Shown: positions 13,926-63,400 of the stretch, in pieces
Layout of the letters: the number at the start of each line of letters is the position of its first letter
Numbering within the stretch: position 1 is the first letter of the stretch
From: Escherichia phage OLB145
DNA length: 64,000 nt
Sequence record: MH992123.1
Reading direction: 5' to 3' (one strand)
Program-made: the position numbers and the translations under genes
Notes under the pieces: model-generated
Told to the model about the DNA's origin: nothing
The model's input: only the letters and a program-made list of their open reading frames with translations
Database searches by the model: none

Positions 13926-13957
13926 TAGCTCCGGTTGAAATATACTGGAGCTATCTT
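13926..13957 (+). terminator. hairpin with short T-tract (weak terminator or processing site)
   Basis: 9-bp stem 13926-13934/13944-13952 (one G-U), 9-nt loop, then TCTTT. Confidence 0.35.
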
Positions 13958-13974
13958 TGAAGAGGATACATACT

Positions 13975-14370
13975 ATGGCCAAAGTTTATCGTGCTAACCG
14001 TAAAGCCCATGATGACGATATTATTCGTATGAATGCAGTCGGTTTATCATTGGGAACCATTGCTAAAACACTGGGTGTTCACCCCACTACAGTTACCTTA
14101 CGATTACGCTCTCTTGGTATTGAACCAGCCGACACACGTCGAACATTTATGGAGAACGTACTAGCACCATTACCTACTCACGTAGCTGATTGGTTATCAG
14201 AACAAGTAGGACCAAAATATGAGATTCGACAATACGTTCGAGACTTATTACTGGAAGCCTACAATAATCGTCATAATCATAAGGAAACTGCTCATGAACG
14301 ATTCCTCAAAAGATACGTTGGTACAAACTCAGAACTGGTTTCTGAAGGCAGTACCCAGCCCAACGAGTAA
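13975..14370 (+). CDS. helix-turn-helix DNA-binding protein
   Basis: ATG 13975 after AGAGGA; 'MNAVGLSLGTIAKTLGVHPTTVTLRLRSLG' is HTH-like; track start 13957 is TTG. Confidence 0.5.
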   Translation: MAKVYRANRKAHDDDIIRMNAVGLSLGTIAKTLGVHPTTVTLRLRSLGIEPADTRRTFMENVLAPLPTHVADWLSEQVGPKYEIRQYVRDLLLEAYNNRHNHKETAHERFLKRYVGTNSELVSEGSTQPNE

Positions 14371-26298: not shown

Positions 26299-26373
26299 GA
26301 TGGTGTAGCTCAGTGGTAGAGCAGTTGGCTGTTAACCAACTGGTCGATGGTTCGAATCCATCCACCATCGCCA
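26299..26373 (+). tRNA. tRNA-Asn (anticodon GTT)
   Basis: Perfect 7-bp acceptor stem GATGGTG/CACCATC, anticodon loop CTGTTAA, T-arm GATGG-TTCGAAT-CCATC, encoded CCA. Confidence 0.85.
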
Positions 26374-26378
26374 AATTT

Positions 26379-26468
26379 GGAAGGTTGTCAGAGAGGCCGA
26401 TTGTACCTGACTTGAAATCAGGAGGCGCAGAGATGCACCCGAAGGTTCGAATCCTTCACCTTCCACCA
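26379..26468 (+). tRNA. tRNA-Ser (anticodon TGA), class II with long variable arm
   Basis: Acceptor GGAAGGT/ACCTTCC, anticodon stem CCTGA/TCAGG with loop CTTGAAA, T-arm GAAGG-TTCGAAT-CCTTC, encoded CCA. Confidence 0.8.
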
Positions 26469-26472
26469 AATT

Positions 26473-26548
26473 GCTGGTTTAGCTCAGTTGGTAGAGCAAT
26501 TGCCTTGTAAGCAATGGGTCAATGGTTCAAGTCCATTAACCAGCACCA
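26473..26548 (+). tRNA. tRNA-Thr (anticodon TGT)
   Basis: Acceptor GCTGGTT/AACCAGC, anticodon stem ATTGC/GCAAT with loop CTTGTAA, T-arm AATGG-TTCAAGT-CCATT, encoded CCA. Confidence 0.8.
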
Positions 26549-26555
26549 ATACAGG

Positions 26556-26637
26556 TTATTAGTGAACACACTATGGAACCTCCCAGCTTCCTCCAGATGT
26601 ACGGCAATACATTAGCTGGTAGTGTGTTCACTGATAG
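26556..26637 (+). repeat. long imperfect hairpin (inverted repeat)
   Basis: Perfect 13-bp stem AGTGAACACACTA (26561-26573) / TAGTGTGTTCACT (26620-26632), extended to about 18 bp with G-U pairs; inner stems CCAGCT/AGCTGG and ATGTA/TACAT. Confidence 0.7.
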
Positions 26638-26716
26638 GTTGTACTATCACAGTCCAGACAATATCTGCGTGACTTAAAAAAACAGATGGAGCCAGGTGGA
26701 ATCCCTGGCAATTAAT

Positions 26717-60464: not shown

Positions 60465-61427
60465 TCACACAATATATGAAGAGAGTGGGTTAACACTTCC
60501 AGTATCATCACCATCATCCCACAATGGGTCACCTGATGTATTAACTGGAACCATACCTGCTTGTGGTTTCCACGGGTTCAGGTAGCCAAGCATTGAAATG
60601 GTATCAATACAGTCATCCTTACCTTTAAGACCATTGATAGTGGCTAAACGAATTTGCCCCATAAAGAGTGTCATGATTGGGCTATCTTTCATTTCAGCAG
60701 GAAAATACATCTTACCAGCTTTGAACCAGGGAACCACGAGGTTAAACCTCGATAGCTTACTGGTTACAGGATGAATACCCGGTTGGCCCCCACGACTGGA
60801 TGCAAAGTTAAAGAACACATTACGGTTAAGCATTTCCTTCTGAAGAAGAGAAATAAAACCACCTTGCTGTCCAGTAGTTTCTACACCAACTTGTTGTGGT
60901 TGGTATTCCTGAACCAGACGGAATAAGTCATCAAAGTTCTTATCCATAGTTTGACGGCAAGCAATACCATCTACCCAGAACCAGTCACCATTAGAACCAT
61001 ATGCCCATACTGATATTACAGAGTAGTCAGATACCTGCTTCTCACTGGTAGCAAAGTCAGTGGTGATATAGAAGTTATAACAAGAACGGAGACGTAATAG
61101 CTGCGTGCGGGAATACCATTTAATCTCTGAATCTTGAATCAGACGTTCATCTTCAGAACTGATACGTAACATCAATTCCTGATAAAAGGATGCCAGCTTA
61201 CCTGTCTTCAATGCCATCTGGTATTGGTCATTGATGTAGTCATAGGAGAAACGGTCTTCCCAAGCACCTTGAAATTCTTCTCGCGTACATGGGAATTTCT
61301 CACATACAGGCCATACGTTGACATCCCAAGCACCAGATTCAACTGCTTCAATAAGAATATCTTCCTTATTAAAGGGAGTACCATTAAAGATTACCTTACG
61401 TCTTGTTGGGTCAAGAGCATGGTTCAC
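60465..61427 (-). CDS. terminase large subunit, C-terminal (nuclease) portion, frame-disrupted relative to the ATPase portion
   Basis: Track ORF starts at GTG 61427; this frame is open upstream to a stop at 61479-61481; contains 'VIFNGTPF' (ATPase coupling motif) and an acidic nuclease-like region. Confidence 0.6.
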   Translation of the reverse strand: MNHALDPTRRKVIFNGTPFNKEDILIEAVESGAWDVNVWPVCEKFPCTREEFQGAWEDRFSYDYINDQYQMALKTGKLASFYQELMLRISSEDERLIQDSEIKWYSRTQLLRLRSCYNFYITTDFATSEKQVSDYSVISVWAYGSNGDWFWVDGIACRQTMDKNFDDLFRLVQEYQPQQVGVETTGQQGGFISLLQKEMLNRNVFFNFASSRGGQPGIHPVTSKLSRFNLVVPWFKAGKMYFPAEMKDSPIMTLFMGQIRLATINGLKGKDDCIDTISMLGYLNPWKPQAGMVPVNTSGDPLWDDGDDTGSVNPLSSYIV

Positions 61428-62098
61428 ACCCTTATATACCGTGTCTTTAATGGCTTCATTGATGTACGTGAGCGAGCATCATCATCACTAACTAAGTCAT
61501 CCAGTACGCAAAGAACGGGACGTTTACCAAAAATCTTAGTACCACGAAGACCTGTCTTAGCACCAAACATCTTCACACCAAGACGGTGACCTTCAGCATT
61601 TACAAACTCAAGGTAGTTATCTGTGAAGGTAGCTTTAGGAATCCATTGTTGCAGGAATGGTGAATTGTTGTATCGAAACTCAATGTTCTTACGGGCAGAC
61701 TTAACACCGTTATCCATAGAGTCAGATACATAAATCATTCCTTCTACTTTACCCAAGCTAGGTAGATGCCCAAACACTGCTAAGAACAAAGTAAAGTATT
61801 CCATGAACAGAGTTGTCTTTGCTGCACCACGGAAACATAAGTTAGCAATGTACTGATTCTTACTGGTTATCTTATCCAGCATCTTTAAGTGAACAGGAGG
61901 GGTTTTGTTTGATTCCCCCTCCTTACCATTAACCAGCTTAATAAAGTTAGCAAAGGTCAGTGCAAATTCGGTTGGTATATACGTAGGGGTATTCAGAACG
62001 GAATAGTCCACTTGGTCTAGCCATTCATCCAACTCCTGTTTAATTAGTTCAGACATCAATAATATCCTCGTCTTCTCGAACCAGTGTGGAACCTGCAA
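61424..62098 (-). CDS. terminase large subunit, N-terminal ATPase portion
   Basis: Walker A 'CFRGAAKTT', Walker B 'VLCVLDDLVSDDD'; ends at TGA 61424-61426 in a different frame from the downstream nuclease portion. Confidence 0.6.
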   Translation of the reverse strand: MQVPHWFEKTRILLMSELIKQELDEWLDQVDYSVLNTPTYIPTEFALTFANFIKLVNGKEGESNKTPPVHLKMLDKITSKNQYIANLCFRGAAKTTLFMEYFTLFLAVFGHLPSLGKVEGMIYVSDSMDNGVKSARKNIEFRYNNSPFLQQWIPKATFTDNYLEFVNAEGHRLGVKMFGAKTGLRGTKIFGKRPVLCVLDDLVSDDDARSRTSMKPLKTRYIRV

Positions 62099-62741
62099 TT
62101 ACTTTAGTAGGTGTACCAGCTTCAATAGCTGCTTTCTGAGCTTCAGCCAACTGGGTTAGTGTGTTCTTGAGTTCAGTCAATCCAGAGTTTTCTCTCAAAT
62201 CCAGATTGATATTAGTAACAGCATCCTTCGGTTTCTGGAGGTGAGTAAGGATAGAGTTGGCAGCATCACACTGTACCTTCTCACTGGTAGCATTCTTCAT
62301 GAGCCATGCCTGATGGTTCAATGCTTCCTGAAACAAATCCTGATTAACAATCCATACTGGAATCAGTGATTGTTCCATAATGAGGTTTACTAACTTACCT
62401 CTATGGTAAGCAGATACATAAGCAGAGATGTCCTTCTCACTGGTTCCCCTTGCTACTAATTCAGCTTGTCTGTTGGGGAATGTTTTGAAGTAAGCATCTT
62501 TATTGCTATACCCCATGTGTTTGTAAGTAACATATTGAACAGCATTAAGATAATCCTGGGTCTTAAACTTCCCATCCTTCATCACCCCAGCATAAGTCAC
62601 AAAGTTATTTCTAATTTGCTCTGCTGCTGTCTGGTCTTGGGTCACATTGTTAATCATGTTTACCAGTTGGTCAGTAACACTGCTTTTAAACTGGGGAGGC
62701 AATGCAGAAACAATGTCTTTCTTAGTCAGTAGTGTGCTCAT
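62049..62741 (-). CDS. putative terminase small subunit (N4 gp69-like by position)
   Basis: 230 aa, first gene of the - strand late cluster, AGGAAG SD, 3' end overlaps the terminase ATPase gene. Confidence 0.4.
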   Translation of the reverse strand: MSTLLTKKDIVSALPPQFKSSVTDQLVNMINNVTQDQTAAEQIRNNFVTYAGVMKDGKFKTQDYLNAVQYVTYKHMGYSNKDAYFKTFPNRQAELVARGTSEKDISAYVSAYHRGKLVNLIMEQSLIPVWIVNQDLFQEALNHQAWLMKNATSEKVQCDAANSILTHLQKPKDAVTNINLDLRENSGLTELKNTLTQLAEAQKAAIEAGTPTKVIAGSTLVREDEDIIDV

Positions 62742-62826
62742 AGTCTTCCTACAAATTATCTAGAGTGAAGAGGATTCTTTTCTTGGGGTTAGCACCCCTT
62801 GCAGAAACCTATACATAGATTTAGAC

Positions 62827-62854
62827 TTTAGACTTTCTTTAGTCTCCTTACAAT
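62827..62854 (+). promoter_or_regulatory. candidate sigma70-type promoter overlapping direct/inverted repeats
   Basis: -35-like TTTAGA (62827-62832), 16-nt spacer, -10-like TACAAT (62849-62854); overlaps tandem TTAGACTT/TAGACTT and the imperfect palindrome TAGACT-TTCTTT-AGTCT. Confidence 0.25.
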
Positions 62855-62901
62855 AGTAAGACAGAGACATGGGGAGCCTATTGCCCAAAGGAACCAGTAA
62901 C

Positions 62902-63210
62902 ATGAGGCTATTCTATAGTTTTGACGGTAATGACCAATGGAATGAGATAGACTTCAGTAAAATAGGTGGAGCTATCCCAGTTGGAGGGGCTATGCCAGGT
63001 GACCATATCTTATGTCACGATGAGGAGTCTTTCCATTACATCTCAGGTATGATGTTAATCAATAACGTCACTGGATTTACTGTACATAAACCTGCACCAG
63101 TACGTGTCATTACCAAGCCTATCGAGGGTCTTGCATTCTTTACAAGAATACCTCAAAGTATCTCTATCAAACGACAGCGTGACGCCATCGAGATGACCGT
63201 GGTTGCTTGA
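62902..63210 (+). CDS. hypothetical protein
   Basis: Track ORF 62869-63210; ATG 62902 has AAGGA upstream. Confidence 0.45.
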   Translation: MRLFYSFDGNDQWNEIDFSKIGGAIPVGGAMPGDHILCHDEESFHYISGMMLINNVTGFTVHKPAPVRVITKPIEGLAFFTRIPQSISIKRQRDAIEMTVVA

Positions 63211-63373: not shown

Positions 63374-63400
63374 GGGAGCCATCTGGCTCCCTTTTTCTTT
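63374..63400 (+). terminator. intrinsic terminator / attenuator hairpin immediately upstream of gene 63421
   Basis: Stem GGGAGCC/GGCTCCC (63374-63380/63385-63391), loop ATCT, then TTTTTCTTTT; AAGGAG SD at 63409-63414. Confidence 0.65.

Follow-up and report, generated by a model that had tools for sequence, protein, structure and literature searches.

The gap that separates the leftward gene gp69 from the rightward gene gp70, at the boundary of the late operon in a coliphage N4-like genome, is best explained by a two-way sigma-70-type promoter joined to a conserved leader RNA, a reading that we consider probable from comparison of the sequences. Two putative promoters, P_R (rightward) and P_L (leftward), would stand back to back in this gap with -10 hexamers that overlap by 3 bp on opposite strands, and the rightward transcript would carry a hairpin (H1), an invariant heptamer (Box B) and a ribosome-binding site ahead of its first gene (Table 1). 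Phages that employ three RNA polymerases one after another have their model in N4, in which both the targeting of the host polymerase to the late genes and the driver of the small right-end genes are poorly defined at the level of sequence.

Table 1. Features of the gp69-gp70 gap and its surroundings, with positions in the window; promoter elements, H1 and the ribosome-binding site are predictions.
Feature	Position	Strand	Basis or remark
gp69, small-terminase-like, first gene of the leftward late operon	62049..62741	-	start codon 62739-62741
Hairpin GGGGT-TAGC-ACCCC, preceded by a T-rich tract	62785..62798		in the gp69 leftward leader, just upstream of the P_R -35
P_R -35, TTGCAG, candidate rightward promoter for gp70-72	62799..62804	+	TTG 17 bp (18 in L207) from the TAGACT-type hexamer in 11/13 lineages
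Tandem repeat, TTTAGAC twice	62820..62833		spans both overlapping -10 hexamers; second copy not conserved as a repeat
P_R -10, TAGACT	62822..62827	+	T1, A2 and T6 kept in 13/13 lineages; part of the core TAGACTTTA
P_L -10, TAAAGT, candidate leftward late-operon promoter	62825..62830	-	T1, A2 and T6 kept in 13/13 lineages
H1, GTCTC-CTTAC-(AATA loop)-GTAAG-(ACA bulge)-GAGAC, putative rightward leader	62842..62868	+	covariation in 22 sequences
P_L -35, TTGTAA (reverse complement of TTACAA)	62848..62853	-	TTG at 17 bp (18 in L207) in 12/13 lineages
Box B, CCTATTG, invariant	62877..62883	+	identical in all 19-22 aligned sequences; 8 nt 3' of H1
Ribosome-binding site of gp70, AAAGGAA, within the semi-conserved GAACCAAGG box	62887..62893	+	sequence
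gp70, PHROG 7213, unknown function, first rightward gene	62902..63210	+	homologues and the N4 annotation
Intrinsic terminator after gp70	63374..63391	+	promoter/terminator scan

The window, that is, the whole stretch of 64,000 nt from Escherichia phage OLB145 (MH992123.1) that was analysed, shares 99.7% identity with Escherichia phage vB_EcoP_3HA13, and 98.7% with coliphage N4, over its right-hand 2.2 kb. The leftward block headed by gp69 extends for ~34 kb and contains late genes, while gp70-72 are small right-end genes read rightward. The first-pass annotation of this DNA had measured the gap as 127 bp, which would be right if gp70 started at the ATG at 62869; in the N4 annotation and in all homologues, however, the start is the ATG at 62902 (MRLFY...), so that the gap is probably 160 bp long. 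Translation from the upstream ATG would stay in the gp70 frame and lengthen the protein by 11 residues (MGSLLPKGTSN, 62869-62901), but this ATG is missing in JWAlpha and the KP8-like phages and opens just a 9-codon ORF in inbricus, and for this lack of conservation a coding explanation in which gp70 is extended from 62869 was rejected. Past the end of gp70 lies a strong terminator (GGGAGCC-ATCT-GGCTCCC and then a T run) that separates it from gp71. The gp70 homologues of JWAlpha and SPSP are likewise followed by such a terminator, and the first right-end gene may therefore stand apart from the rest. Two further observations concern the window at large: the large terminase gene, a single 1593-nt CDS in N4 (gp68), is here divided into two overlapping minus-strand ORFs (60465-61427 and 61424-62098) by the loss of one base near 61457 in comparison with N4, which is either a sequencing error or a real frameshift, and four tRNA genes (Asn, Ser, Thr, Pro) lie on the plus strand at 26299-26978.

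Across phage subfamilies the region is the most conserved DNA of its neighbourhood. A non-coding block of 75 nt (62821-62895) is 85-92% identical in distant N4-like phages, including members of another subfamily: 92% in Pseudomonas phage inbricus and Achromobacter phage Axy13 (subfamily Rothmandenesvirinae), 86% in JWAlpha, JWDelta and phiAxp-3, and 85-86% in the Klebsiella KP8-like phages, with recognisable parts in Gamaleyavirus and in Stenotrophomonas phage Philippe. Its position is constant, with the leftward late genes beginning on one side of it and the rightward genes on the other, and the proteins encoded beside it are just 26-39% (gp70) and 49-86% (gp69) identical; in inbricus a megablast search with the 2.2-kb query matched this block only. 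The motif of H1 and Box B reaches as far as Sinorhizobium phage ort11, and the hosts of the carrier phages belong to the gamma-, beta- and alpha-proteobacteria. The element is absent from Pseudomonas phage LUZ7, in which the equivalent gap is just 68 nt, and because LUZ7 lacks it the start-site study of that phage is uninformative here. The gp70 alignment was too divergent for scanning, and chance hits dominated a first pattern scan of viral contigs, so loci anchored on gp69 were used instead; the alignment comprises the lineages together with 80 viral-metagenome loci so anchored. A length of 75 nt is also that of a tRNA, an identity ruled out by ARAGORN, which calls tRNAs in the window only at 26.3-27.0 kb and none at the block. 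A search of N4 and the divergent loci against Rfam 15, at both gathering and permissive thresholds, gave no match, and hence no membership in a described structured-RNA family.

The invariant positions of the left part of the block and its flank are TA.A.T.TA (TAGACTTTA, 62822-62830) together with a TTG on its left and a CAA on its right, each at a distance of 20 nt, and they make up the pseudo-symmetric layout TTG-N20-TAGACTTTA-N20-CAA (62799-62853). This arrangement fits two overlapping -10 hexamers, each with a TTG-type -35 at a distance of 17 bp, and on that reading every conserved base of the core would be accounted for. The two opposite-strand hexamers have the form TAnnnT, a -35-like element lies on each side within the range of 16-18 bp, and genes flank the 160-bp gap in both directions with no other promoter available for them. 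Among the lineages the -10 of P_L takes the forms TAAAGT, TATAGT or TAAACT. The promoter spacers cannot be aligned between subfamilies, yet the spacing of the TTG is kept. The strict pattern TTGnnn-N16-18-TAnAnTnTA-N16-18-nnnCAA matches exactly this site in 10 distinct lineages and occurs once in the 64-kb window, against 0-2 matches per round in shuffled loci (five rounds, several hundred kb). An independent promoter scan picked one arm or the other as the sole promoter-like site within 1 kb in two lineages, TTGATA-17-TAGACT (P_R) in JWAlpha and TTGACG-18-TAAAGT (P_L) in L207. In inbricus and JWAlpha the leftward start codon is only ~37-42 nt from the core, so that in these phages the late promoter must overlap the core; the P_L predicted here is 77 nt upstream of the gp69 start. 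Applying the 7-bp rule, we place the start of P_R at ~62834 (+/-2), within a pyrimidine run in N4, and that of P_L at ~62818, so that the predicted starts are 16-17 bp apart.

The agreement with the sigma-70 consensus in N4 itself is weak for both arms (7/12 for P_R and 8/12 for P_L), and the scan flags neither of them in the window. A correctly spaced TTG is missing for P_R in Philippe and L193, and the TTG of P_L is missing in Gamaleyavirus; among those carriers of H1 and Box B that are most distant, for example L154-L159, we did not find a clear double promoter. The wide host range of the carriers fits a signal read by the host polymerase. According to PMC4496689, which cites Cho, Choi and Rothman-Denes (1995), host sigma-70 RNA polymerase transcribes the late genes of N4, with N4SSB as its activator. 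P_L resembles the N4 late promoters in pointing leftward, in lying upstream of a late gene and in having a weak sigma-70-like -10. Our literature search found no transcript-start data for N4 or any relative with the element, and P_L may already be mapped as an N4 late promoter; the sources consulted on N4 late promoters mention neither an overlap of divergent promoters nor conservation across subfamilies.

The layout has a close parallel in bacterial genomes. The bidirectional promoters described by Warman, Grainger and colleagues are pseudo-symmetric and share a -10, with starts mostly 18 bp apart (PMC12825309); binding in the two directions is sterically exclusive, and substantial activation of one direction represses the divergent RNA (PMC12825309). 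Across these promoters the divergent starts are ~10, 18 or 23 bp apart. The site studied here shares with them the opposite-strand -10 elements with bases in common, the -35 on each side and the short spacing predicted between divergent starts. Unlike them, it is a phage site at the boundary of two temporal gene classes, is kept across subfamilies and hosts, and in N4 has hexamers that overlap by 3 bp (TAnAnTnTA). H1 and Box B beside it together look like an undescribed leader RNA motif, with no match in Rfam.

The second component of the region is H1. In nearly all of 22 sequences an H1-type hairpin occupies the same place, ~8 nt before CCTATTG, and across the carriers it has a pyrimidine-rich 5' arm, a purine-rich 3' arm, a bulge on the 3' side and an AT-rich loop, with stem sequences that differ. 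Running MAFFT and RNAalifold on the divergent sequences returned no structure, the stems being out of register, and a covariance model was used for this reason. In the covariance-model alignment of the 22 sequences 95.6% of the H1 cells are paired, against 79.8% in shuffles, the pairing being inflated in that the alignment is fitted to the model; controls with the hairpin slid along the sequence reach only 36-57%. Changes on both sides of the stem affect 7 of the 10 pairs, with 27 such cells where 8.1 are expected and none of 500 shuffles as high, so that H1 has the compensatory changes of a structured RNA in an alignment that is, again, fitted to the model. A permissive custom hairpin search was discarded, since it over-paired the sequences and its ratio of G-U to A-C (27:18) was uninformative; pairs were counted with RNAfold instead, which gives 216 on the plus strand (16 of them G-U) and 187 on the minus strand (9 G-U), with the total energy favouring the plus strand in 11 of the 22 sequences.

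These properties bear on an alternative that we regard as unlikely though worth some weight, in which H1 and Box B form a DNA site where a phage or host factor activates or represses P_L from about -25 to -65. Box B is as invariant as a protein site would be and is centred at about -62 from the predicted P_L start, joint changes on the two arms are also usual for inverted repeats to which dimers bind, and the gaps between Box B and the P_L -35 (22-24 and 31-32 nt, judged by eye) differ by roughly one helical turn. The phasing is not clean, however, with a further class of gap at 37 nt, and the position of H1 relative to the -35 varies by lineage while its spacing to Box B is fixed. The bulge on the 3' side of H1 is conserved, its T-G positions (the 16 G-U pairs counted above) can pair only as plus-strand RNA, and H1 is much less stable on the other strand in five lineages (L175, L159, L193, L151 and L187), with -14.6 against -3.7 kcal/mol in L175 and -9.5 against -3.8 in L159. 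N4SSB, moreover, reportedly activates without binding DNA (PMC4496689). Wobble positions are mostly T-G on the plus strand, and with the energies of these lineages this favours an RNA hairpin in the rightward transcript, whereas the total energies of the 22 sequences are by themselves ambiguous. An RNA hairpin at H1 needs a rightward start upstream of 62842, which P_R would provide.

The repeats within the core had been interpreted otherwise in the first-pass annotation, as an operator for a dimeric DNA-binding protein laid over a rightward promoter, TTTAGA-16-TACAAT. That account has something to build on. The tandem TTAGACTT-TAGACTT does lie at 62821-62835 as had been reported, with TTTAGAC repeated at 62820-62826 and 62827-62833; the palindrome at 62829-62845 is present as AGACT (62830-62834) and an inverted AGTCT (62841-62845) around a 6-nt spacer; and TTTAGA (62827-62832), a 16-nt spacer and TACAAT (62849-62854) form a sigma-70-like match of 9/12, the best of the region in N4, with TACAAT also found in the KP8-like phages, L138 and Philippe. 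It is in the relatives that the account fails. The palindrome is lost from the KP8-like, Gamaleyavirus, Philippe, L190 and L209 sequences, and the second repeat copy becomes TTTAGCC or TTTAGTC, while the promoter bases are kept. The register of the proposed -10 is not kept either, A2 and T6 of TACAAT being retained together in just 6 of 13 lineages, T6 lost in 7, and TACAAC, TGCAAA, TTCAAC or AACAAC found elsewhere; the portion that never varies is CAA, the TTG of an opposite-strand -35, to which its invariance is suited, and it is this P_L -35 that TACAAT overlaps. The hexamer also straddles the 5' arm and loop of H1, and a start from it at ~62861 would halve the hairpin despite the RNA-type covariation of H1.

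Taken by themselves, the listed repeats do not exceed chance. By chance 0.81 copies of a tandem-like 14-mer, allowing up to 2 mismatches, would be expected in the window, and 55 of 100 shuffles contained at least one; TAGACTT is counted 9 times where 13.8 are expected, TTAGACTTTAG with up to 2 mismatches has 21 copies against 29.5 expected, and a scan at the 1-kb scale found 2 promoter-like sites, fewer than the 6.7 in shuffles. Looking for further copies of the motif across the genome, a check that the annotation had itself put forward, gave none, the motif being single-copy and under-represented. No operator family is matched, and the half-sites are not conserved as repeats. The protein suggested as a regulator (13957-14370) has only sub-threshold HTH matches in Pfam, the HTH_38 match scoring 18.8 bits against a cut-off of 27. 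An operator for a dimeric protein over TTTAGA-16-TACAAT is for these reasons a reading we find quite improbable, although the broader idea of a regulatory, promoter-bearing divergent region at the boundary of the late operon is borne out in spirit by the conserved promoter pattern. The repeats most likely form a core that two back-to-back host-type promoters share, and not a site bound by a repressor. The tandem repeat would be largely a by-product of the two overlapping -10 hexamers and the bases just 3' of each, and nothing in the data appears to call for a protein bound here.

It is very unlikely that the core is a promoter for a T7-like RNA polymerase of the phage, either RNAPII or the virion polymerase. 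The sequence ACTTTAG resembles positions -7 to +1 of the T7, T3 and SP6 promoters (ACTATAG, ACTAAAG), and at the same place L193 has ACTATAG and L187 has CCTATAG. The promoter of N4 RNAPII is said to be short and AT-rich, running from -7 to +2 (PMC4496689). Against this, N4 has many middle promoters, situated in the left half of its genome, and the present element has a single copy; ACTWWAG shows no enrichment (35 copies against 52 expected), neither the TTAG spacing patterns nor the triple TTAG is repeated in the genome, and a T7-type promoter would have no use for the TTG and CAA that flank the core at 17 bp. The three promoters of the N4 virion polymerase (P1-P3), at the left end of N4, are quite unlike the core, being GC-rich hairpins with stems of 5-6 bp and 3-nt loops that are followed by TTTTGG. 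H1 is like them in that it is a hairpin in a transcription signal of the same phage, but it differs in its pyrimidine/purine stem of 10-12 bp, which is bulged, and in its AT-rich loop of 4-9 nt (10 bp and 4 nt in N4), and a reading of H1 as a hairpin promoter for the virion polymerase was rejected, as its flanks have no similarity to those of P1-P3. Scarcely any credence attaches to the block being a replication origin or packaging signal instead of a transcription element, since, for all that it is single-copy, strongly conserved, placed where transcription diverges and adjoining a small-terminase-like gene, it lacks both an AT-rich unwinding tract and an array of repeated binding sites, it lies anywhere from ~1.1 to 2.5 kb from the terminal repeat depending on the phage, its invariant bases match promoter hexamers and its hairpin has wobble pairs of the RNA type.

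Under the two-way promoter and leader RNA, the events at this boundary might run as follows. P_L (TTGTAA-17-TAAAGT) would start the leftward late operon at gp69 and so be its first late promoter, while P_R (TTGCAG-17-TAGACT) would start the rightward unit of gp70-72. The P_L arm is presumably driven by the phage activator N4SSB. With predicted starts only ~16-17 bp apart, one polymerase at a time could occupy the site, and strong late activation of P_L would then also silence P_R through competition between polymerases. The rightward RNA would open with a leader of ~68 nt containing H1, CCUAUUG and the ribosome-binding site, to which many relatives add a second hairpin, and our best guess is that this leader most likely controls the stability or the translation of the first right-end gene. 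If the scheme is true, a single, mutually exclusive site kept across subfamilies and host classes serves both as first late promoter and as right-end promoter, and it constitutes a simple temporal switch in which activating one direction represses the other; single-base changes at A62823 (for P_R) and T62829 (for P_L) should separate the two activities. We also raise, tentatively and as a possibility that we think doubtful at present, a larger hypothesis in which H1, CCUAUUG and, in most relatives, the second hairpin form an undescribed family of cis-acting leader RNAs of N4-like phages with alpha-, beta- and gamma-proteobacterial hosts, the box being read by a conserved phage or host factor that gates translation or read-through, and in which this leader together with the promoter is a switch that turns the right-end genes off as N4SSB turns the late operon on.

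Structured 5' leaders that hide a ribosome-binding site, and promoter-proximal RNA elements such as lambda nut and HK022 put, are known from other systems. The leader proposed here is like them in having one or two hairpins and a short conserved single-stranded box just 3' of a promoter, and a terminator after the first gene. In many sequences the CCU of the box, with a few variable bases before it, is predicted to base-pair with the AGG in the ribosome-binding site that serves the first rightward gene. The leader differs in having no sequence similarity to nut boxA/boxB or put and, in N4, no second hairpin. In 12-14 of the 22 sequences the second hairpin starts at the G of CCTATTG and is perfectly paired and variable in sequence; it is absent in N4, the KP8-like phages, Gamaleyavirus, inbricus and Axy10. 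Among the more distant carriers the leader precedes a gene that is no gp70 homologue, so it goes with the position and not with the gene. The complete invariance of CCTATTG is a point against the promoter and leader reading, which does not account for it. As a repeated site Box B was rejected, the 4 other copies of CCTATTG in the window lying in coding sequence without a hairpin. The GAACCAAGG box around the ribosome-binding site, which bears a resemblance to E. coli 6S RNA, gives no match to 6S in Rfam, and LUZ7 has AAACCAAGGAG yet lacks the element; GAACCAAGG is probably just the context of the ribosome-binding site. The hairpin and CCUAUUG leader is a candidate new regulatory RNA motif for the Schitoviridae, and a handy marker with which to annotate the boundary between late and right-end genes in metagenomic N4-like genomes.

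Several minor observations concern the flanks of the core and individual carriers. To the left of the core, the T-rich tract and the GGGGT-TAGC-ACCCC hairpin (region 62770-62812) are found in N4, the KP8-like phages and Gamaleyavirus at ~80% identity and are absent in Rothmandenesvirinae; the hairpin is kept in Enquatrovirinae only, with a loop that differs and reads GGGGTGAGTTACCCC in Gamaleyavirus. To the right, AGCCU (62874-62878), which starts shortly 5' of Box B and runs into it, can pair with AGGCU at codons 2-3 of gp70 (62905-62909), and the KP8-like equivalents are AAUC and GAUU, possibly a compensatory change, in a pairing that would enclose the gp70 start codon. Philippe (L009, 2575-2613) has two CCTATTG boxes 32 nt apart, 3' of a TAGACTTTA core and TTACAA, with no obvious H1. 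In ort11 (L215, 1992-2282), where the rightward unit includes tRNA genes, H1 and Box B fall inside an annotated opposite-strand CDS for a hypothetical protein of 96 aa, Smphiort11_089, which may be a mis-call. Several uncultured relatives (L157, L159, L190 and L192) have an extra GGGG...CCCC hairpin after GAACCAAGG and no obvious gp70-like ORF, and a structured RNA that extends beyond the leader may therefore exist in some lineages.
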